This document shows positions 9,903 to 44,782 of a stretch of DNA of 64,000 nucleotides, piece by piece (the first letter of the stretch is position 1; every line of letters starts with the position of its first letter). Under the pieces are notes generated by a model. The model was given only the letters and a program-made list of their open reading frames with translations. It was not told where the DNA came from and made no database searches. A program made the translations under genes and the position numbers. The DNA lies in assembly GCF_963921235.1 (NCBI RefSeq), contig NC_086108.1, positions 89,220,001-89,284,000 on the forward strand, given 5' to 3'. The stretch is from Mobula hypostoma (Eukaryota).

Positions 9903-10243
9903 AGAATACACCTTCTGGTGCTAATTGGACATGTCTTCAGTGATGAACCCAGGGTCATAGGGGGTTTCGGGCCTTTAGTCATCAGATAACCTCGACCGGG
10001 TGACCCAGCCGGAGGTGATCAGCCCCTGACTTGTGTCATAGTCGCACACTAATCTACGAATACCCCCTCCGGATCCACAGCCACCGCGAGGCCTTTTCAG
10101 CAGCCTCCAGAATGTTCTGGTGGCTGTTCTATACTGCAGTTCTTTAACTCCAAGGAGATTTAGAGTCCGCTGTAATGAATGGCCCGCAAAGCCCCGGCAC
10201 CCAACTTCGACTGGCTCACAGCGAGCTCTCCAGCCATTGCTCC
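9903..10243 (-). repeat. Hero 3'-terminal repeat unit (downstream copy)
   Basis: Aligns end-to-end with 13509-13848 at roughly 90% identity by eye. Confidence 0.9.
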
Positions 10244-13200
10244 ATCATTCTGCAACAAGATCTGTGCATCTCGCCCTCTTGTGCTCGTTGGCCTCTTCAA
10301 TCCGGTCTTCCCAGGGGACAGTAAGTTCCAGCAGGACCACTTGCTTTGTAAACTCCGATATTAACACCATGTCCGGGCGGAGCGGAGTGGCTGCGATGTT
10401 CTCTGGAAACTCGAGCTGCCTCCCTAGGTCTGCTTGGAGCTACCAGTCTCGTGCAGTGGAAGCAGCCCTCCCAAGGAGACAGGCCGATGTTAAGCCTTCT
10501 CCCCCGCTCTAATAAAGGTGATGGACTGTTTGGGAGCGTGCTGATTTTTGCTGTCTTGAATCGCTGTGCTGATTGCATCCGCCATAGACCTTAGGCCTCG
10601 GTCATGGCGCCAGCGGTATCGGCAGCAACTTAGGATATGCTCCAAGGTGCCCCTCTTCTGGCACAGTTGGCATGCTGGAGTGTTTGCCATGCCCCACCTG
10701 TGCAGGTTGGCCGGGTTTGGGAGAACATCATAGACTGATTGGATAAGAAACTTGATGCGCATTGGTTCAGCTCTCCAGAGCTCTGTCCGGGTGAGCTTGC
10801 GAGGTTCCGCATGCTCCCATCTAGTCCAGGCGCCTTGTTTGTACATGCCGGCCATCTTGCTGTATCGTTCTTCCTCCACTTCCGCTCGTATCTCATCCTG
10901 AACCAGTTGATACTTCTCCTTTCCACGGGTTTTGTCGTAGCGTGGTTTGGGAAAACAGCCCAGTCTTTCCCGCCCCACCGCCACAGTGGCCACCAAAATG
11001 TTGAGCCGCAGCCGTACCTCCGCTCTGTCGACAGCTTCCTGTGCCTGCCACTTCCTTCCGGTCTTTACGCGGATTCCTGCTGAAGCGACTTTAACATCAG
11101 AGGAGTCTCGGTACATCATAACCTCCCTGGCTCGAGTGACTTTGAACTCCTCTGATAGGCCGCTGGCGGGGAGCTGCAGCTTGGTGGAACACCCATACAG
11201 GACAATGCAGCTTGAGGTCCGGGGGAGACCCAGCCACCTCCGGAGAAACTGACTGATGGTCTTCTCCAGAGCCTCCACTGTTGACATTGGCACCTTGTAG
11301 ATTAGAAGGGGCCAGAGTAGCCTTGGCAGGACTCCGTGTTGGTACATCCAGGCTTTGAAATTTCCTGGAAGCCCCAATTTGTCAGTCATGGTGAACCAAG
11401 TTATCGAGTCACTCCTGGTTTGTTGAAGTGCGGCTGTGTCCTTCAGGGAACTGTCAAAGATCTTGCCCAGGCTCTTGACTGGTTTTCCTGTCACTGTTGG
11501 AATCTGGATCCCTCCCAGGGTAAAGCAGAACTGGTCGGCCACTCTTCCCTTCTTCAGGACCAGAGACCTGGACTTGGCTAGATTAAAGCTCATCCTTGCC
11601 CATGAGATGAGTCATTCCAGCCCATGAAGGAGCCATCTGCACCCAGAGACGGATGTTGCCATCACCGTCAGGTCGTCCATGAATGCTCTTATGGGGGCTG
11701 CCGAGTACCAGATCTAGACGTGGAGCCTCTACATCCCACCTCCGCTGACTTGACAATCAGGTTCATGGCCAATCAGAAGAGTGGCACCGAGATTGTGCAG
11801 CCAGTGATTGTGCCCTTCTCCAGCCGATGCCAGGCGGATGTTACTGACCCTGAGGACGCTCTCAACCTGAAGTCGCTGTAATAATCCAGAATGAGGTTTC
11901 AGATCATCTCTGGAACGTGGTGTCTTGTCAGTGCTGTTTCAACGAGTTTGTGTGGGATGGATCCATAGGCATTGGTTAGGCCTAACCAGAGTGCTGCAAG
12001 GTCTCCTTTTGCCTCCCGGATCAGCTGGACCACCACTCCTGTGTGCTCTAGGCATCCGGGTACTCCTGGGACTCCCCCCTTCTGTACTGAGGTGTCTATG
12101 TGTCCATTCTTCAAGAGGAACTCAGTTAAACGATGGACCACAATCTTGAAGATCTTCCCTTCAACGCTGAGCAGCAAGATAATATGAAACTGCTCGATGT
12201 TGCTTGAATCCTCCTCTTTTGGTATCCAGACACCCTCCCCATGCCTCCACTGAGCAGCGACCTTTCCTCTCTGGCAGATCAACTTTAAGATCTTCTAGAG
12301 TCACACAAGAAGCCTTGGGCACTGCTTGTAGACTTTGTAAGGCACTCCACTGGGGCTAGGGGTGGAACTTGCTCTTGCTGCTTTGACTGCTTCTTTGACC
12401 TCCTTCAGGGTGGGTTCAGAAATGTCGAATTGGGTCACCGGTTCTGGAGGTATCACCAGTGCCTCACATGGGCCGAGGTCCTGCTTTCTTGAGGTGGCAC
12501 TGAAAGTGATACTGAGATGGTGGTTTATCTCCTCTACAAAACAAGTGAGGTGGCCATTTCGCTTCTGTCCTAGTATCCTCTTGGTGAAGCCGAAGGGATT
12601 GGTAATGAAAGCGCTGTGCTTTGGGCCCTCTCCTTGCCCTTCCTTCGGTGCCACTCAGCCCACCTGAGTGTGATGAGCCTCCTCCTCATGATATCTGTGA
12701 GGTCTGACAGGCCAGTCTTCTCCTCCTCCTTGGCCAACTTAAATTGGTACTTCAGAGATTTGAGGTCTTGTCTCAGCTGGCTGATCTTCAGTTCCTGCCG
12801 GTTTGGTCTCGCTGGATTACTTGTTCCATGCTTTTCCTTGACGCCAAACCATTCTGAGCCTATGCTCATTATGAGGGTGCACATAGTCCAGAGCCTCTGG
12901 TCAGCATTGACCTTCGATATCACCTCCAGAATTTTGTCTACGTCCTTATCCATCTGGAGCCACTCCTTCTTGTTAGTGGCAGGCCACTTCGCCTGACGCT
13001 GTTCTGACTTTCTGCTCACTGGGAAGACTTGTGTTGCTTGGAGGTTCCGGGCACTGTTGGGTGACTCCGACTGGGCTCCTCCTCTGTCTGACCAGGTTCT
13101 GTAGTCAGCACCACAGAGCTTGTAGTACTAGCTACTGCTCCTGTGCGTTGTTTCACTCGTTTCCTCCTCGAGCAGGCCATCTTTGTCTGGTGGATCTTCA

Positions 13201-13508
13201 GACCTCTCAGGTATTTGTACACCTTGCCACAGATACAAACTACGCTCATAGTCGATCGTCCACCTGCTTGAGTCATTGCCAATAGGTCCGTCCGATTGGG
13301 ATGCTCATCCTCCCCCCCCCTCTCGAGCATCCCTGGGGGTATGTTTCAGAAGGGTTCTTCGTAGCTTGTTTGGGTGCTCCCTCACAGGAGCTGCAGTTCA
13401 GGGTGCTAGCCCTTGCTGCCCCGTTTGCCGTCTTTCCGTGCTGTCTGCTGTCTCTCCAGCCGTCACCATTCTATTCATGGCCGTCATCCAGACTTTCCTA
13501 CAGGTCAC

Positions 13509-13848
13509 AGAATTCACCTTCTGGTGCTACTTGGACACGTCTTCAGTGATGAACCCTGGGTCATAGGGTGTTTCGGGCCTTTAATCATCAGACAACCTCG
13601 ACTGGGCGACCCAGCCGGGGGTGATCAGCCCCTGACTTGTGTCCAAGTGGCGCACAAATCCACGGATCCCCCTCCGGATCCACAGCCACCGCGAGGCCTT
13701 TTCAGCAGCCTCCAGAATGTTCTCGGTGGCTCTTCTGCACTGCAGTCCTTTAACTCCAAGGAGTTTAGAGTCCGCTGTAATGAATGGCCCGCAAAGCCCC
13801 GGCACCCAACTTCGACTGGCTCACAGCGAGCTCTCCAGCCATTGCTCC
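13509..13848 (-). repeat. Hero terminal repeat unit (upstream copy of the element's 3' end)
   Basis: Direct repeat of 9903-10243, placed 5' of the element's 5' UTR. Contains the ORF C-terminus (ARCEPVEVGCRGF...WLW) and the 3' UTR. Confidence 0.9.
13533..13614 (-). ncRNA. Candidate pseudoknotted hammerhead-like RNA motif (Hero family 1)
   Basis: RNA: CUGGGUC..AGGUUG-UC|UGAUGA-UUAAAGGCCC-GAAA-CACCCU-AU-GACCCAG-GGU-UCAUCA-CUGAAGA. Stem I and stem III pair, but stem II is poorly supported. Confidence 0.5.
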
Positions 13849-13860
13849 TCAATATAATAA

Positions 13861-14131: not shown

Positions 14132-14768
14132 GTTATTTGAAATGCTACAGAAAACTCTAGATCTAGATTCAAAAGACCTTCGCCTAATCAAAAATCTATA
14201 CTGGGAACAAACTGCCACTGTAAAAATAGATGGAGAAGTGAGTCAGTTTACAAAAATCAAGAGAGGCATTAGACAGGGGTGTGTTTTCTCCCCTGATTTA
14301 TTTAATGTGTACAGTGAAACAATATTACAAAAAATAAGAGACATCTTGGGAATCAAAGTTGGCGGTGAAAGCATCAATAATTTCAGATATGCAGATAACA
14401 CTGTGTTACTTGCAAGTACGGTGGAAGAACTACAAAACTTAATTGATATAATTGTTGAAGAAAGTGCAAAAATGGTTCTATCTATCAATCGCAAAAAGAC
14501 AGAATGTATGGTGATATCCAAAAAGAAGGAGAATCCTATCTGCAGGCTGAGAATAAACAGGGAAGATATAAAACAAATACAGAATTTTTGCTACTTAGGA
14601 AGCTGGCTGACATCAGATGGCAGGTGCAACATGGACATCAAAAGAAGAATAGGGATGGCAAAAGACACCTTCACAAGAATGAGGAGTATACTGTCCAATA
14701 CTAAACTAGGCATGACAACCTGTCTCAGAGTACGGAAACGTTACTTTTATCCTGTTATGTTATATGGC

Positions 14769-14960
14769 GGGGTGTATGGAGTGTCAGGGAGGGGTAGCGC
14801 CTCTGGTGGGGTAACATGTCGCGTCCTTTTCAAGGCGGTTAGTCCACCTTTGGTCCCCACCTGGCACTCAGCTCTCACCTGTGGCTCCCCGTAGTTGTTT
14901 GCATGCGACAGCGGCCACACCCCGGGCAACGGCTTTGACAAGCCGGCTAAACCAGGTGAG
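14769..14960 (+). ncRNA. HDV-like self-cleaving ribozyme at element 5' end
   Basis: P1 GGGGUGU(14769-75)/ACACCCC(14917-23). P2 CUCACCUG(14874-81)/CAGGUGAG(14953-60). P3 GGC/GCC. L3 UCCCCGU. P1.1 CC/GG(14924-25). P4 CGGCUU/AAGCCG. J4/2 GCUAA with C14947. Confidence 0.85.
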
Positions 14961-15610
14961 GGTGGCTGACGGGTCTCAAACCCTCGGTGAGATAGGGAGT
15001 TGTCTATCCCAGCATGTGAAGACAGACTCTGGCGGATTGAGTGGATAAAACCAATGGAAGGTCCAACGGTCAAGAAGGCGGTCTCTGCAAGCGTCGTGGA
15101 ACGTGTAGAGCAGGACAAGACACAGAAGACGTCCTGGTCATCCACTGCGCCTAGTCCCATCTCCAGCCGTCTCAACTCTGTCTTGCCACTGGATCCAGAT
15201 GGGAATTGGGAAGAGGGAGTGAGGCTGACGCTGCGCAACTCTCCCTCACTTAAATCCTTTCTTTTTAAATCTTTTTATTGAGTAAGTATACAAAAAAGGT
15301 AAGCCATATAAACATTAATACAATGTTAAAGTATAATAAAATTCCAAAAGATAACAATACCAAAAAGAAAATACTACAAACAATGTAATTTAAGCATAAG
15401 AAACCAAGATAACATAATAGTATACTAGATTTTATATATATCAATGGAAAAAAAGAAAAAAAAAACCCCCAAAAAAAACCCACCGTGCAACTAACTAAAA
15501 GCAAAGCAAAGCAATGGGCTAACTTGAAACCAAACAGAGTTAAACTTAAAATCACGTCCTCAATCCCGACCTCCATTAAAACAGTGAAAAAAAAACAAGA
15601 AGGGTAAATA

Positions 15611-18600
15611 TTACATTAAATGAAAATATCGAATAAAAGGTCCCCAAATCTGTTCAAATTTAAATGAAGAATCATAAAGGTTACTTCTAATTTTCTCCAG
15701 ATTCAAACATAAAATCGTCTGAGAAAACCAAAAAAAGGTAGTTGGAGCATTAAGCTCTTTCCAATGTTGTAAAATACATCTTTTCGCCATTAAAGTAAGA
15801 AATGCAATCATTCTACGGGCTGAAGGGGAAAGATTACTAGAAATTTTAGGTAGTCCAAAGATAGCAGTAATAGGGTGAGGAGAGATATCTATATTTAATA
15901 CCTTAGAAATAATATTGAAAATATCTCTCCAAAAAGTTTCCAAAGTAGGGCAAGACCAAAACATATGAGTTAAAGAGGCTATCTGCCCCGAACATCTATC
16001 ACAGAAAGGATTAATATGCGAGTAAAAACGCGCTAACTTATCTTTGGACATATGTGCTCTATGCACCACTTTAAATTGAATTAGGGAATGTTTAGCACAA
16101 ATAGAGGAAGTATTAACTAATTGTAAAATCTGCCCCCAATCATCCACAGAAATGGTAAGCCCCAATTCCTGTTCCCAATCTACCCTAATCTTATCAAATG
16201 GAGCTTTCCTGAGTTTCATAATAATATTATAAATCATAGCCGATGCACCTTTCTGACATGGATTAAGGTTAATTATCGAATCTAAAATATATATAGGAGG
16301 AAGCATTGGAAAGGAAGGAAGTATAGTACTTAGAAAATTTCTAACTTGTAAATATCTAAAAAAATGTATTCTTGATAGGTTATATTTATTAGATAATTGT
16401 TCAAAAGACATAAGGGAACCATCTAAAAATAAATCCAAAAACCGTAAAATACCCTTAGTCTTCCAAGTTTGAAAAGCGCGATCCGTAAAAGAGGGAGGAA
16501 AAAATATGTTACCTAAAATAGGAATCGCTAACCCGAATTGATTAAGATCAAAAAATTTTCTGAATTGAAACCAAATACGCAAAGCATATTTAACGATCGG
16601 GTTAGAGACCTGCTTAAGGCGTTTCGAATCAAAAGGAAGAGATGAACCTAAAATAGAACCAAGTGTATAACCCTGAACAGATTGTAATTCCAATGCTACC
16701 CATTTAGGAATAGATAGTATATCCCGGTCAAGTAACCAAAATTTCATATGTCGAATATTAATAGCCCAATAATAAAATCTAAAGTTAGGTAATGCTAAAC
16801 CTCCATCTCTCTTAGCTTTCTGTAAATGTATTTTACCCAGTCTCGGATTCTTATTCTGCCAAATAAATGAAGAAATTTTAGAGTCGACTTTATCAAAAAA
16901 AGATTTAGGAACGAAAATTGGTAATGCCTGAAACACATATAAAAATTTTGGCAAAAAAAACATCTTAACTGCATTAATACGACCAATCAAAGTTAAATAT
17001 AAAGGAAACCATTTAGATGAAAGTTGAGTAATATGGTCTATTAATGGTAAAAAGTTAGTCTTAAATAAATCTTTATGTTTACAAGTAATTTTAATCCCAA
17101 GATATGAAAGGTAATTATTAATCAATTTAAATGGAAATTTATAATATAAGGGAAGATGTTTATTAATCGGAAAAAGTTCACTCTTACTAAGATTTAATTT
17201 ATAACCTGAGAAAAGACCAAATTGTGCTAATAACTCTAAAACAGCAGGAATAGATCTCTCAGGATTAGAAATATATAAAAGTAAATCATCAGCATAGAGT
17301 GATAATTTATGGGACTTTAATCCCCGAGTTATCCCAGTAATATTTGAAGATTCTCGAATAGCAATTGCAAGAGGTTCTAATGCAATATCAAATAATAGGG
17401 GACTAAGAGGACAGCCTTGTCGAGTACCACGAAAGAGAGGAAAAAAAGGTGAGTTTAAAGAGTTAGTACGAACCGAGGCTACAGGGGAGTGATATAACAG
17501 TTTAATCCAGGATATAAATTTCAGGCTAAAATTAAACATTTCAAGCACCTTAAATAAATAAGGCCATTCTACTCTATCAAAAGCTTTCTCGGCATCTAAA
17601 GAAATAACACACTCAGGAACATTTTGTGAGGGAGTAAGAACGATATTTAACAATGTACGAATATTATAAAAAGAGTAACGACCTTTAATAAAACCCGTTT
17701 GGTCTTCCGAAATAATAGAAGGAAGTACTTTTTCTAGTCTATTTGCTAATAACTTAGAAAAAACTTTAGAATCAACATTTAATAAAGATATTGGTCTATA
17801 AGATGCACATTGAGCAGGGTCTTTATCCTTCTTTAGTATTAAAGAAATTGATGCTCTATTAAAAGATTCCGGAAGTTTACCAAGTTTCAAAGAAGCCTCA
17901 AAAACCTTATAGAGCCAAGGAATCAATAAAGAAGCAAAACATTTATAAAATTCAACAGTAAACCCATCAGGGCCAGGAGCTTTCCCCAGATTCATAGAAA
18001 AAATAACATTCTTAATCTCATCCATTGTAATGGAAGTATCTAATAAAGAAGACATATCCTGTGAAATCTGAGGAAAGTCTAACTTATCTAAAAAATCATT
18101 CATATATTTAGAATCTCGAGGAGACTCTGATTGATATAAAGAAGAATAAAAATCACAAAAGGTTTGATTAATCCCCACATGATCCAATATCAATCGATCA
18201 TTTTGGTTATAAATCTGATTGATTTGAGATTTAACATAATTAGATTTCAATTGATTAGCCAGCAGCTTGCCAATTTTATCACTGTGAACATAAAAATCAC
18301 TTCTTGTTTTCTTTAATTGGTTTACAATCGAGGACGAGAGTAGTAAACTGTGTTCCATTTGAAGTTCAGTTCTTTGTTTGTATAGCTCCTCAGAAGGAGC
18401 CATAACATATTTCTTATTAATTTCTTTAATCTTGTCCACAATTGCCATCTCCTCCTGCTTCTGTTTCTTCCTCAAAGCAACGGAATACGAAATAATCTGA
18501 CCCCGAATATAGGCTTTAAAAGTGTCCCAAAGAGTGTTAACCGAAATATCTTCTGTATGGTTAATTATAAAAAAAAGCTCAATCTGTTCATTCATAAAAT

Positions 18601-19387
18601 TAACAAAGTCCGAGTCCTGAAGCAACAGCGAATTAAAACGCCATTGTCTATTGTTTGGTATATTGGCCATAATTTTAATAGAAAGCTTAAGTGGAGCATG
18701 ATCCGAAATGGTTATAGAATCATAATCACATTTAATCACTGAAGGAATGAGACGAGAATCAATAAAAAAATAATCAATTCTTGAATAGGAATGATGAACA
18801 TGTGAAAAAAAGGAAAAATCTTTTTCCTGAGGATGCAGAAAACGCCAAATATCCGTCGACCCAGAATCAGAAAGGAAAAAATTAATCAAATTTGCAGATT
18901 TATTAGGTAAAGTCCGTAAAGGAGCCGAACGGTCCAAAGCTGGAGATAAACAGGTATTAAGATCTCCGCCCCAAATCAATGAAAACTCGTTCAAATTCGG
19001 AAACTGATCAAACAATGATTTATAAAATTCCGGACAATCCATATTAGGAGCATAAACATTAACCAAAACTACTTTTTTATTAAATAGTAAACCACTAACC
19101 AATAAAAATCTACCATTCGGATCAGAGATAATATCCTGTTGTATAAAAGTAACTGAGGAATCTATAAAAATAGAGACGCCTCGAATCTTAGCATTGGAGT
19201 TCGAATGAAATTGTTGTCCCTTCCAGAATTTGAAAAAACGTAGTCTGTCCCCCCTCCGTACATGGGTCTCTTGTAAAAATAAAATTTGTGCTTTAAGTCT
19301 CCGGAACACTTTAAAAACTTTTTTTCTTTTAATAGGATGATTAAGACCATTAGTATTCCAGGAGACAAAATTAATAATAGACTCCAT
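15611..19387 (-). CDS. L1 ORF2p: APE endonuclease, reverse transcriptase, CCHC domain (1258 aa, uninterrupted)
   Basis: SWNTNGL, LQETH, GGDLN, SRIDYF, SDH; KAPGPDG, YRPISLLN, LDAEKAFD, GTRQGCPLSP, YADD; CDRC..HMFWSC. First ATG at 19387. Confidence 0.95.
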   Translation of the reverse strand: MESIINFVSWNTNGLNHPIKRKKVFKVFRRLKAQILFLQETHVRRGDRLRFFKFWKGQQFHSNSNAKIRGVSIFIDSSVTFIQQDIISDPNGRFLLVSGLLFNKKVVLVNVYAPNMDCPEFYKSLFDQFPNLNEFSLIWGGDLNTCLSPALDRSAPLRTLPNKSANLINFFLSDSGSTDIWRFLHPQEKDFSFFSHVHHSYSRIDYFFIDSRLIPSVIKCDYDSITISDHAPLKLSIKIMANIPNNRQWRFNSLLLQDSDFVNFMNEQIELFFIINHTEDISVNTLWDTFKAYIRGQIISYSVALRKKQKQEEMAIVDKIKEINKKYVMAPSEELYKQRTELQMEHSLLLSSSIVNQLKKTRSDFYVHSDKIGKLLANQLKSNYVKSQINQIYNQNDRLILDHVGINQTFCDFYSSLYQSESPRDSKYMNDFLDKLDFPQISQDMSSLLDTSITMDEIKNVIFSMNLGKAPGPDGFTVEFYKCFASLLIPWLYKVFEASLKLGKLPESFNRASISLILKKDKDPAQCASYRPISLLNVDSKVFSKLLANRLEKVLPSIISEDQTGFIKGRYSFYNIRTLLNIVLTPSQNVPECVISLDAEKAFDRVEWPYLFKVLEMFNFSLKFISWIKLLYHSPVASVRTNSLNSPFFPLFRGTRQGCPLSPLLFDIALEPLAIAIRESSNITGITRGLKSHKLSLYADDLLLYISNPERSIPAVLELLAQFGLFSGYKLNLSKSELFPINKHLPLYYKFPFKLINNYLSYLGIKITCKHKDLFKTNFLPLIDHITQLSSKWFPLYLTLIGRINAVKMFFLPKFLYVFQALPIFVPKSFFDKVDSKISSFIWQNKNPRLGKIHLQKAKRDGGLALPNFRFYYWAINIRHMKFWLLDRDILSIPKWVALELQSVQGYTLGSILGSSLPFDSKRLKQVSNPIVKYALRIWFQFRKFFDLNQFGLAIPILGNIFFPPSFTDRAFQTWKTKGILRFLDLFLDGSLMSFEQLSNKYNLSRIHFFRYLQVRNFLSTILPSFPMLPPIYILDSIINLNPCQKGASAMIYNIIMKLRKAPFDKIRVDWEQELGLTISVDDWGQILQLVNTSSICAKHSLIQFKVVHRAHMSKDKLARFYSHINPFCDRCSGQIASLTHMFWSCPTLETFWRDIFNIISKVLNIDISPHPITAIFGLPKISSNLSPSARRMIAFLTLMAKRCILQHWKELNAPTTFFWFSQTILCLNLEKIRSNLYDSSFKFEQIWGPFIRYFHLM

Positions 19388-20111
19388 AAATCCTAAAGTC
19401 AACCCACGACAAGGAGGATTGACAATAGGCGCGACCCACAAACCCGGAGAGGAAACAGAACATACAAAAGATACCGGGGAAAAGGACGCAACCAGTACTT
19501 CAATAATGTATATAGCCCAAAGAAAAACAAACTAAAACGTGAAGCCCCTCCCGCCACCCCCCAGCCCAACACCCCCAGGCAAAATCTAAAGCAGACCCGC
19601 CCGAAAGAAGCAAGCGCAAAAACTACCCCCATGACTTCCGGTATACGCTCCCTAAAAAAAAGGTATAAATATGAAAAGGATCAGCTAATTGTAAAACAGT
19701 AAAAAAATAAGTAAAAAAAAGTTAGCTCAATTAGAATACACACAGAACAGAACAAAAGCCGGAAAATATATATTAAAAAAAAAACCACAATAAACCTCAA
19801 ACTCATGAATAGACACAGCAACAAAAAAAAATAGGATTATTAACATAAAGTGATTATAAAAAGCAAAACAGAATAAAATTTAAACAAAAACTACAAAATT
19901 TAAGGCCGCACAGGAAATACGTAAGATAACAAAAGGGAAGTAACCACCCAGAATCCCCTGGGAAAAGAAAGAAATGACGCAGTTAAAAAGAAAGTTTAGT
20001 AGCCATATTAAGAAATCGAAAGTAAACTTTTCTGCCCAAATAGGGCACAGAAAAGTTAAAACCAACCAATTCACAGCCTCCGATCAACGGAGAAAATTAA
20101 AAAGAAAGCAA

Positions 20112-21011
20112 TTAAGATGTTGGAGATGAAAGTTGATCCAGATAACTCTGGGCATCCGATGGAGAATCAAAAAAACGAAGGGCTCCATCTGACATGCGAA
20201 TCCTTAGACGTGCAGGGTACAGCAGCGCTGGTCTTAAATCCATCTTATAGAATTCCGACATCACGGATCTGTAACGGACCCGTTGGTCCCAGATTGGTTT
20301 ACTGAAATCTTCCACGAATCGGAACTTAAGATCCGAAAAATCAATGAAACCTTTAGATCGAGCGAATCGAAACAGTCTCTCCTTGTCTTGAAAGTAATGA
20401 AAACGTAAGATAACATGCCTAGGTCTATCTGACCTAGACGAGTATGATGGGATTCTGTGAACACGATCCAGTAGCGGTGGTTGGTCAGGAAATACAGTAG
20501 GGAATGCATCTTTTAAAAGTTGGGAGAAATATTTCATGGGGTTGTTACCTTCAGCGGCTTCCCTCACGCCAATCATTCGTAAATTCTGCCGTCGCATTCT
20601 AGATTCCAAGTCAGAGTTTTTAAAAGTCAAAAAGTCAAGTTTCTTCTTCATTACATTAATTGTTTCTTCGATTTTCCCCATCTTAAGCTCACTTTGTTGC
20701 GCGAATTTTTAAAGATCAGATATAGCCGACTGATGTTCCGCAATAGATGTTTGCATCTTATCAATTAAATCGGCAATTTTCTGGAAATTAGTTGAGATTT
20801 CCGTATGAATCAGGTCTTTAACAAAGCCTGCAATTTCCGTACGAATCATCTCCCTAACAGAGGTTGAGATTTCCCTCTGAATTAACTCCGCTATCGCTTT
20901 CAAAGTCACCGGTGATTCAGTCGGAGGGAGATCCGTAGCTTTCGGTTTAACCGGAGGTTTACCATCCTTGCCGTCTTTCTCGTTCTTAGACATAGCAGAT
21001 CTAAGTTCCAT
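20112..21011 (-). pseudogene. L1 ORF1p (299 codons) with one in-frame TAA at 20709-20711
   Basis: ORFs 20709-21011 and 20112-20681 are in the same frame. Motifs DLESRMRRQNLRMIG, DRVHR, EDFS and LLYPARLRI are typical of L1 ORF1. Confidence 0.88.
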
Positions 21012-22504
21012 CCAGTTGTCGGAGAATTCAGTTTAATTCAAAGTATTGTAAGAGTTGATGCCTTAATGGTTAATTAAAGTATAGCTGACCATAGAGAAAA
21101 AAAACTCAGAGGTAATGGAGCGAGTCAAGAACGCGACTTCACTCCATGAGCGCTACCGGAAGTCTCCCCTCCCTCACTTAAATCCAAGTCATGCGCTAGC
21201 CTCGACACCATCATAATGGTGTCGAGGTCCTCATCGACGTACGATGGACAAACAACATGTTATATGGCTCAGAATGTTGGACAATATCTAGTAACATGAG
21301 GAAATGAATTGAAGCAGCAGAGATGTGGTTTTTGAGGAGGATGCAAAGAATATCATGGACAAAACAAATATCTAACAAGGATGTCATGAACAGAGCAAAC
21401 ACAAAACGAGAAATAATATGAGATCATGAAAAGGCAGCATAACTTCATTGGACATGTGATTAGGAAAGAGGAGTTAGAATGCACGGTAATTAAGGGAAAG
21501 ATTGAAGGGAAGAAAGCAAGAGGAAGACAAAGACAAATGATGATGGAGACAGCAGCCAGAGGACTGGAAATGAATACCAATGAATTGATCCGCTTGACCC
21601 GAAACAGGAGTGTGTGGGCCATGGCAGTCAAAGCTCAAACTGGGCACGGCACCTGATGATGCTGATGATGATCTCTAAATAAAATAAACAAATAAATAAT
21701 ATTGATCTAAACTTGAGGGTAATTTTCACCCTGTCCCCAGCAATTAAAACAGTAAGCAGAATGGTAGATGTTTGCTTTTGTTGCACTAATGATATGCTAA
21801 GATCAAATCCTAACTTGGACCATGCAGTTTTTGATTTTTAGAACATAAAACTTTACAGCTCAGTACAGGTCCTTTGGCTCACAACGTTATGCAGACCTTT
21901 CAACCTACTTTAAGATCAATCTACTCCTCCCTTCCTACGTAGCTCTCCATTTTTCTATCATGTTTGTGCCTACCTAAGAGTTTCTTAAATGTCCCTTTTC
22001 CGTCATAAATGTGTGATGATCTTAGCATTCACTCAGATCATCATGGCCAGATTTGAAACCAGGTTGTAGACAGAAATGGCACCAGAGAAGCTGCAGGAAG
22101 GTGAATGATTTTAATTGTTTAGGGATTCCTTAGCCTTCCATTTCCTCTGATCTCTGTTTCCCTGCAATAGATATAGGATTTTTATTCTATTAAATGCATT
22201 CGCTGTGCATTTTGAAATAACCTTACAAGGTCACCAGTGAGAGATTCCAGTGAGGGCTTATTCAATAAATCCAAAGAAGGAATGGAAAAATTCCAGGCTT
22301 ATCTATAGTGAAGTACATATTTGCTAGGTCAAGTGGCTTTCTCCTGTGTGTAACTATTCTATGATTCTATTATACTACAAAGGAAAATTGGTTTCTGCAG
22401 GACCTGAAAGATGGGCTGATAGTATTTTTTGTTTCTATTTGAATGGGAATAGTGATGGTTGTTCCAGTTTTACATCATATAAAATAAACAGCCAGTGTTT
22501 CAGG

Positions 22505-29898: not shown

Positions 29899-30465
29899 TT
29901 GTTGTTGTTCGTCCATCATTGACGTCGATGAGGACCTCGACACCATTATGATGGTGTCGAGACTAGCGCGTGATTTGGATTTAAGTGAGGGAGAGTTGCG
30001 CAGCGTCAGCCTCACTCTCTCTTCCCAATTCCCATCTGGATCCAGTGGCAAGACAGAGTCTAGACGGCTGGAGATGGGACTAGGCGCAGTGGATGACCAG
30101 GACAACTTCTGTGTCTTGTCGTGCTCTACACGTTCCACGATGCTTGCAGAGACCGCCTTGGTGACCGTTGGACCTTCCATTGGTCTCGTCCGTTCAATCC
30201 GCTGGAGTCTGTCTTCACATGCTGGGATAGACAACTCCCTATCTCACCGAGTGTTTGAAACCCATCGGCTATCCTCACCTGGTTTAGCCGGCTTGTCGAA
30301 GCCGTTGCCCGGGGTGTGGCTGCTGTCGCATGCAAACAGCTACGGGGAGCCACAGGTGAGAGCTGAGTGCCACGTGGGGACCAAAGGTGGACTAACCACC
30401 CTGAAAAGGATGCGACATGTCCCCCCACCAGAGGTGCTACCCCTCCCTGACACCCCATACACCCC
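29899..30465 (-). mobile_element. Non-coding RTE-type short retroposon, family A, copy 2 (uninterrupted)
   Basis: Reverse-complement match to 14769-15257 plus 21186-21256, with the same 5' start GGGGTGT and a (caa)n tail. Confidence 0.9.
30274..30465 (-). ncRNA. HDV-like self-cleaving ribozyme, second copy
   Basis: All of P1, P1.1, P2, P3, P4 and J4/2 (GCUAA) are the same as in copy 1. Differences in the core fall in loops or keep pairing. Confidence 0.85.
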
Positions 30466-44431: not shown

Positions 44432-44782
44432 CAAACACGAGGAATTCTGCAGATGCTGGAAATTCAAGCAACACACCTTGAAGTTGCTGGTGAACGCAGC
44501 AGGCCAGGCAGCATCTCTAGGAAGAGGTACAGTCGACGTTTCGGGCCGAGACCCTTCGTCAGGACTAACTGAAGGAAGAGCTAGTAAGAGATTTGAAAGC
44601 GGGGGGGGGGGGGGTCTCCTATCATTTTGGATCTCCCCCTCCCCCTCCCACTTTCAAATCTCTTACTAGCTCTTCCTTCAGTTAGTCCTGACGAAGGGTC
44701 TCGGCGTGAAACGTCAACTGGACCTCTTCCTAGAGATGCTGCCTGGCCTGCTGCATTCACCAGCAACTTTGAGGTGTGTTGG
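44432..44782. mobile_element. Fold-back pair of Penelope 3' ends with two opposed hammerheads
   Basis: 13-bp TSD tctgatacaatca (44419-44431 and 44783-44795). Arms ~44468-44600 and ~44650-44781 are inverted copies. Confidence 0.88.
44531..44566 (-). ncRNA. Minimal type I hammerhead ribozyme (Penelope type), consensus-perfect
   Basis: AGUC-CUGACGA-A-GGG-UCUCGG-CCC-GAAAC-GUC-GACU. Stem I AGUC/GACU, stem II GGG/CCC, self-complementary ACGU in place of stem III. Confidence 0.8.

Follow-up and report, generated by a model that had tools for sequence, protein, structure and literature searches.

Within a 64,000-nt stretch of the Mobula hypostoma genome (NC_086108.1, positions 89,220,001–89,284,000; hereafter the window) lies a short repeated element whose first base coincides with the predicted cleavage site of an HDV-like ribozyme. 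The locus raises the question of what such an element is, what sets its 5′ end and which machinery copies it. Here we report that this non-autonomous element derives by internal deletion from an RTE-type retrotransposon of 4.2 kb that resides in the same genome, and that its ribozyme, together with a hairpin next to the catalytic loop L3, is inherited from this parent LINE.

The element in the window

Once a nested insertion is removed, the element totals 560 bp (14769–15257 plus 21186–21256, forward strand; Table 1). A 12-bp target-site duplication (TSD; 14757–14768 and 21257–21268) places its first base at G14769, as had been proposed in an earlier reading made from the letters alone (the sequence-only reading), and a second copy on the reverse strand (30465→29903), 93% identical to the first over 489 nt, starts at the same base, 30465. 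A clean TSD around this second copy was looked for and not found. The RTE copy that hosts the element is unrelated and has a different tail, and was for that reason ruled out as the mobilizing partner. Searches of Rfam at the element and of the window with ARAGORN for tRNAs each returned zero matches; calls made by ARAGORN at lowered thresholds on the consensus were judged spurious.

The element had been described as non-coding. It does contain an open frame of about 92 codons, which is the upstream ORF of the parent minus its stop (83–88 codons where intact in the parent), and to that extent the description is loose. We considered a selected protein and rejected it, as the frame has no homolog among longer proteins, matches no Pfam family and is missing from the older family B.

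Table 1 Coordinates of the element, its copy and the nested insertion in the window
Feature	Position	Strand	Remarks
5′ TSD, 12 bp	14757–14768	+	Inside the RT frame of the unrelated host RTE copy
3′ TSD	21257–21268	+	Second copy of the 12-bp duplication
P1, 5′ strand	14769–14775	+	Pairs with 14917–14923; G14769 is the first base of the element and the predicted cleavage site (G1)
J1/2 domain, 95 nt	14776–14870	+	Multi-helix; basal helix bridges P1 and P2
P2, 5′ strand	14871–14882	+	
P3, 5′ strand	14883–14885	+	Pairs with 14914–14916
L3	14886–14893	+	U-C-C-N-N-G pattern
Extra 6-bp hairpin at the 3′ end of L3	14894–14912	+	
3′ half of the ribozyme	14914–14963	+	P3, P1, P1.1 GG, P4, J4/2 and P2 3′ strands
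P1.1 partner GG	14924–14925	+	
P4	14930–14945	+	
J4/2	14946–14950	+	Contains the predicted catalytic C14947
P2b	from 14951	+	
Remainder of the parent's 5′ UTR	14964–15257	+	Upstream ORF with ATG at 15054; no Pfam or protein matches
Nested L1/Tx1-type insertion	15258–21185	−	5.9 kb, antisense; a later event, separate from the element
TSD of the nested insertion, 17 bp	15241–15257 / 21169–21185		
Intact ORF2 of the nested insertion, 1,276 aa	15611–19441	−	Endonuclease, RT, zf-RVT
Junction helix	21201–21226	+	5′ arm 21201–21211 (parent 5′ UTR), 3′ arm 21216–21226 (parent 3′ end), 4-nt loop
Terminal stem–loop and (AAC)n tail	21231–21256	+	Common to the autonomous element
Second copy, uninterrupted	29903–30465	−	Ribozyme 30465–30271; junction helix 29961–29936

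Other repeats share the window. The nested L1/Tx1-type element is a young insertion, with an intact ORF2 and a 17-bp TSD. Two related fragments (12500–13850 and 9903–10243) are non-LTR and restriction-endonuclease-type in appearance, a resemblance that we take to be HERO-like. A dispersed repeat also forms a near-perfect inverted repeat of 146 bp, its arms 21 nt apart (44469–44781), which accounts for the weak Rfam miRNA matches in the window.

An autonomous RTE carries both ends

A partner search by the 3′ end was uninformative about an autonomous source: all 29 other matches were short elements. The parent was located with a terminal stem–loop pattern designed to exclude the short element, which gave 47 matches, some of them ORF-bearing, and thus the autonomous RTE sharing both ends that the sequence-only reading had called for was found (L221 and L230). 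Nucleotides 1–521 of the short element align to L221 (4.18 kb) at 95.6% identity and nucleotides 518–559 at 90%, the two segments lying 3.6 kb apart in L221. The short element retains the parent's first 521 nt (about 95% identity) and its last ~44 nt, with the ORF deleted. Because both ends are common to the full-length parent, the short element is an internal-deletion derivative. We delimited six parent copies of 3.6–4.2 kb, and most of 30 loci chosen by junction-flanking sequence start at or close to the same G.

RTE-clade elements have a single ORF encoding an AP endonuclease and an RT, no RNase H, and a short 3′ UTR with a microsatellite tail. The parent shows all of these features: in L230 the frame is intact, spans 1,109 aa and encodes Exo_endo_phos and RVT_1 domains, with no RNase H match. 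We take the parent to be an RTE on its architecture and motifs rather than on a tree of named references. Relatives of its protein are widespread (58–79% identity across the RT half). A Vingi/Ingi element, considered as a partner on grounds of resemblance, was dropped after the parent was discovered.

Size, non-autonomy and a 5′ end at G1 of an HDV-like fold all survive from the initial description of the locus as a ribozyme-SINE of ~560 bp; a SINE with a head of its own does not, as the element is an internally deleted LINE. The same evidence bears on a classical Pol III SINE in which a small-RNA-derived head has been joined to a borrowed RTE tail. Such an origin would suit a short, high-copy element with a microsatellite tail and 8–13-bp TSDs, but the entire 5′ part is the LINE's own 5′ UTR, no tRNA, 5S or 7SL head and no Rfam or tRNA match is found there, and the full-length parent refutes it, leaving this explanation with hardly any credibility.

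The 5′ module and the protein have diverged to different degrees. RTE-A (L230) and RTE-C (L312, L317) have 5′ modules of 80% DNA identity and proteins of only 33–39% identity (from decayed copies), and L402, from a metagenome, resembles the parent at 82% in the DNA of its 5′ module and at 62% in its protein. These values suggest that the ribozyme-bearing 5′ module may have been swapped between RTE lineages.

The 5′ end folds as an HDV-like ribozyme

P1 (7 bp), P2, P3 (3 bp), P1.1 and P4 are present in the order of a nested double pseudoknot, and each of the parts previously named (the 7-bp P1, P3, L3, the P1.1 GG, P4, J4/2 and the hairpin) lies at the position given for it. P2, read before as 8 bp, is there but extends to 11 pairs with one bulge, so that J1/2 measures 95 nt (98 nt with the 8-bp P2). 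This J1/2 had been called atypical, a judgement that we do not share: in the available text of two sources, long structured J1/2 regions are ordinary (PMC4908430, PMC3774820), R2 J1/2 loops reach up to hundreds of nucleotides (PMC3774820) and a structured J1/2 speeds cleavage (Webb 2016, PMC4908430). In the element, J1/2 folds with z = −4.6 (0 of 200 shuffles), and the same fold is predicted in families A, B and C.

The core residues U14886, G14891 and C14947, which we equate by HDV numbering with the U and G of L3 and the catalytic C, are present, and they are the same in the consensus sequences of families A–D and in the metagenome elements L402 and L438. We scored the fold on 11 natural copies that represent five lineages, namely families A, B and C plus two metagenome elements. 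Of all cells, 94% are paired, and in 7 of the 35 pairs both partners have changed, compared with 37–49% of cells and 0–2 pairs in slid controls; relatedness of the 11 copies inflates the shuffle control of this test. The two-sided changes are spread over P1, P2, the hairpin and P4, and include two P1 pairs in the metagenome relatives. The second pair of P1.1 is broken in 4 of the 11, which are decayed copies, and intact in both window copies. Relative to A, families B and C keep P1, P3 and P2/J4/2 nearly unchanged (60 of 62 positions), with drift concentrated in J1/2 (77–78 of 95 positions kept), the P4 region (13 of 19) and the body (208–211 of 285).

A fourth family, RTE-D, which was parsed by eye, has a canonical fold with a 7-nt L3, a reversed P3 and other P1, P2 and P4 sequences. 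HDV descriptors applied to metagenome upstream regions gave 2 matches in 41 in strict form (0 in shuffles) and 1 match in a looser form. By eye, candidate canonical HDV-like folds that lack the hairpin were noted upstream of RTE ORFs in the metagenome contigs L446, L449 and L417, where the descriptors did not recover them. Self-cleavage at G1 is very probable.

A paired insertion in L3

A classical L3 has 7–8 nt and joins P3 directly. The element has 8 nt followed by a 19-nt hairpin and 1 nt, and we treat its ribozyme as an HDV-like variant despite this insert. The first copy in the window carries one C→U change in the hairpin that is retained as a U–G pair, in agreement with the wobble noticed earlier. 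Families A and B have identical hairpin sequences, and C differs at 2 of 19 positions, which are partners: the basal pair is G–C in 29 of 29 scored A copies and A–U in 20 of 22 scored C copies (of 30 copies per family, 1 in A, 5 in B and 8 in C fell outside the parsing pattern). A profile run on 71 metagenome loci encoding relatives found a ribozyme head of this type in two, L402 and L438. Both are predicted to fold a 6-bp hairpin there, in a sequence that has diverged, and both are elements whose proteins are 62% and 49% identical to that of the parent. The sister family RTE-D lacks the hairpin, and the family-A core pattern without it has no match in the genome.

The hairpin might nevertheless be absent in the RNA, either because the first bases of the insert close a local P3, the rest then serving as a P3–P1 linker, or because the insert inactivates the ribozyme. 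A local P3 (G–U/G–C/C–G) can be drawn in families A and B, and the isolated hairpin is weak, at −3.5 to −5.7 kcal/mol. In family C, however, the local P3 is broken (A in 20 of 22) while the hairpin is kept by its A–U pair; 98.5% of hairpin cells are paired in the 11 natural copies; and the hairpin is retained in RTEs of 49–62% protein identity, which together make this alternative very improbable. The hairpin is likely a tolerated, selected peripheral element that projects from the solvent-exposed 3′ side of L3. Its loop (14900–14906) contains a 6-nt palindrome that recurs in L402 with both end bases changed; the simple reading is an extra closing pair around a 4-nt loop, and a kissing-loop contact is speculation. 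Our literature search found no L3 insertion of this kind; Ruminski 2011 and Webb 2009 fell outside its scope and may show one.

Genomic copies start at or near G1

The ribozyme core is present at least 1,254 times in the 3.5-Gb genome, counted as exact matches of a 27-base core pattern, against 0 for the reversed control. The consensus of 49 near-full-length copies is 563 nt long with a mean divergence of 2.8%, values biased to young copies because mostly top matches were taken. Family B is older, at about 12% divergence from its consensus, and so is family C; both have the ribozyme head. TSDs, 5′ truncations and 5′ inversions among the copies show that the element is retrotransposed as a unit.

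Copies selected by their 3′ end start at G1 in 14 of 29 cases and within 14 nt of it in 7, the remaining 8 being truncated. When copies were taken in genome order, 21 of 30 start at G1 and 26 lie no more than 4 nt from it; the corresponding counts for de-duplicated young copies are 81 and 98 of 120, and 27 of 65 de-duplicated old copies start at G1. Copies extending upstream of G1, which the sequence-only reading had named as evidence against itself, did not appear among the tabulated ends, and de-duplicated loci share no common upstream sequence, positions −12 to −2 resembling flank. Five family-B copies (L132, L133, L138, L148 and L152) do have common upstream flanks, three of them also downstream, and we rejected these as a 5′ extension: the element is apparently a passenger inside another repeat. 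A separate LINE supplying the family-B tail was likewise rejected (0 of 7 pattern matches), as the tail matches RTE-C instead. L014 and L114 stop at the (CAT)n run within the 5′ part and lack the normal 3′ tail, which suggests priming at an internal microsatellite.

Position −1 is a T in 56 of the 81 young G1 copies. TSDs were detected in 35 of 58 full-length copies, mostly of 8–13 bp, and 13 of these 35 have extra bases between the TSD and G1, the final base being T in 12. Reverse transcriptases can add non-templated nucleotides, and the T excess fits such addition and, equally, a template that starts one base earlier. An internal promoter starting at −1 or G1 could thus set the 5′ end, with the fold acting mainly as a cap substitute, a translation element or a protein-binding site. 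Besides the T excess, this is in line with the expectation, in the part of PMC5786205 available to us, that bipartite LINEs are Pol II transcripts with 5′ control sequences, and with L1Tc, in which a promoter and a ribozyme are reported to share one stretch of 77 nt (PMC3383444). Yet of 22 copies in which the TSD touches or overlaps the element's first base, 9 lack the T; families that differ in P1 sequence likewise start at G1; and conservation across lineages extends to the catalytic residues and to all five helices. A promoter and a ribozyme are, moreover, mutually compatible. We consider it rather improbable that a promoter sets the end in place of self-cleavage.

The deletion junction lies in the loop of a probable helix between the two ends

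The junction of the internal deletion falls within the 4-nt loop of a perfect 11-bp hairpin, the arms of which are 3.6 kb apart in the parent. Family C has different 12-mers at the same two places, again complementary to each other, and full-length copies have them too. Each family's arms pair with their own partner (11 bp for A–A and 12 bp for C–C; 0 of 1,000 shuffles each), whereas six cross-family arm pairings are at chance level. The arms thus change in step from one family to the next, at a constant position behind a motif that is conserved, which points to selection on pairing. In RTE-D the arm pairing is weak, a split helix with a longest run of 7 bp (32 of 1,000 shuffles by energy).

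The geometry of the parent was used to place an 80-nt window in metagenome RTEs, with 4 of 23 elements dropped as too short. This window, which was fixed after four of the metagenome elements had been inspected, outperforms other windows of its own element in 8 of the 19 that remained (p ≤ 0.05 each; combined p ~3 × 10⁻⁶), the other 11 not being significant singly. A second test was anchored on the conserved motif, which 13 of the 19 carry. Own tails pair better than foreign tails (−19.4 versus −14.3 kcal/mol; 7.7 versus 5.1 bp; 0 of 100,000 permutations), and after removal of four by-eye or redundant elements the counts are 36 of 100,000 by energy and 30 of 100,000 by helix length; base composition within an element is uncontrolled in these permutations and controlled in the same-element window test. 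Three of the 13 elements show no tail pairing at all. A raw duplex-energy scan of whole elements is noisy and ranks the helix site first in just 1 of 20 copies from this genome. Overall, the pattern of sequence changes makes a functional long-range helix likely.

Whether the helix also caused the deletion is a separate matter. The 5′–3′ complementarity might instead act in DNA or cDNA, or be a historical by-product, for example of template switching, with the deletion arising by short-repeat recombination at (CAT)n and no RNA helix involved. A short microhomology does lie beside a (CAT)n run at the junction, recombination is favoured for R2 SIDEs by Eickbush 2012 (PMC3414825, in the part available), and the commonest short elements of B and C, which are successful, have the junction helix deleted. 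Against this, the arms change together between families, implying selection on pairing, and several short elements of a second family (L189, L341 and L347) are also joined at the helix. We regard an account without an RNA helix as unlikely, and lean slightly towards the helix as a cause of the deletion. Abundant B and C short elements without it indicate that the helix is dispensable for mobilization in trans.

Other junctions vary. The internal deletions in L210, L305 and L323 break elsewhere. L149:1190–1310 (−), L189, L341 and L347 carry junction-helix variants with varied loop lengths, and the end pair in L149 has gone from C–G to U–A. At 2 of 30 loci (L116:1388–2060 and L129:1475–2086) about 100–135 nt of a tRNA-headed SINE lie precisely within the loop of the junction helix, which probably reflects a composite subfamily or a second template jump at the same site.

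A model for the element and its implications

Taken as a whole, the locus is probably best explained as a deleted RTE derivative with an HDV-like 5′ end predicted to self-cleave and a helix pairing its ends. Cleavage before G14769 would give every RNA the same 5′ end, whatever had been transcribed upstream; the protein encoded by the parent would bind the 3′ stem–loop and tail, and the parent RT would copy the short RNA by target-primed reverse transcription. Mobilization in trans by the parent's protein is almost certain. In the full-length RNA the arms would pair and keep the ends together, and the RT may occasionally jump over the looped-out ORF, thereby founding short elements.

The recurrence of the end match in distant relatives may explain the origin of such short elements. 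A wider proposal, to which we give an even chance, is that a broad subgroup of RTEs circularizes its RNA by pairing the 5′ UTR with the 3′ end in a helix whose sequence is particular to each family; this would be a cis-recognition signal for full-length RNA and the structural reason that RTEs spawn bipartite elements, with one branch headed by a catalytically active ribozyme, a new HDV-like subtype with a functional hairpin in its catalytic L3 loop. Only RTE, Ingi, Vingi and R2 form bipartite elements, a clade bias for which the reason is given as not known in the available part of PMC5786205, and an inter-UTR helix with the junction in its loop makes this question directly testable. If the helix is real, it would also bear on template design for RTE-1 and Vingi writers, which, according to the portion of PMC13708176 available, take templates flanked by both cognate UTRs. 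If the L3 hairpin is a natural part of the ribozyme, the HDV-like fold would be widened, and searches that assume an L3 of 7–8 nt would miss a class of ribozymes.

Comparison with known systems

Bipartite RTEs and RTE ribozymes are already known (PMC5786205, PMC6765202), and the comparisons here refer to the available parts of the papers cited. The closest likeness is to the bipartite RTE LINEs (RTESINE1/2, WALLSI3, MAR4_MD and Bov-A; PMC5786205), in which RTE ends are joined by internal deletion, the original 5′ end is kept and tails are exchanged among relatives; the present element adds a resolved ribozyme, and its junction falls within the loop of a 5′–3′ helix that is conserved. R2 SIDEs and R2/R1 hybrid SIDEs (PMC3414825) and NARTc, RIME and SIDER (PMC4035085) are likewise short, internally deleted non-LTR elements with an HDV-like ribozyme head that are mobilized in trans, and self-cleavage has been demonstrated for elements of the R2 SIDE and NARTc type (PMC3414825, PMC4035085). 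These are rDNA-specific or trypanosomatid, whereas the element described here occurs dispersed, in thousands of copies, and differs further in its APE-type parent and its L3 hairpin.

The same nested double pseudoknot, large structured J1/2 and basal helix bridging P1 and P2 occur in RTE-associated HDV-like ribozymes, drz-Agam-2-1 (PMC4908430) among them; what sets the present ribozyme apart is its hairpin of 17–19 nt inside L3. RTEs and RTE-related SINEs (PMC6007223) also have a conserved stem–loop, the 3′ terminal hairpin, immediately before the microsatellite tail; that hairpin is local, whereas the arms of the helix described here lie in the 5′ UTR and at the 3′ end, with the ORF between them. 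Our literature search, which covered papers, found no description of pairing between the 5′ and 3′ ends of RTEs. The element therefore belongs to a class that is already known, and what it adds is the L3 hairpin and the end-to-end helix.
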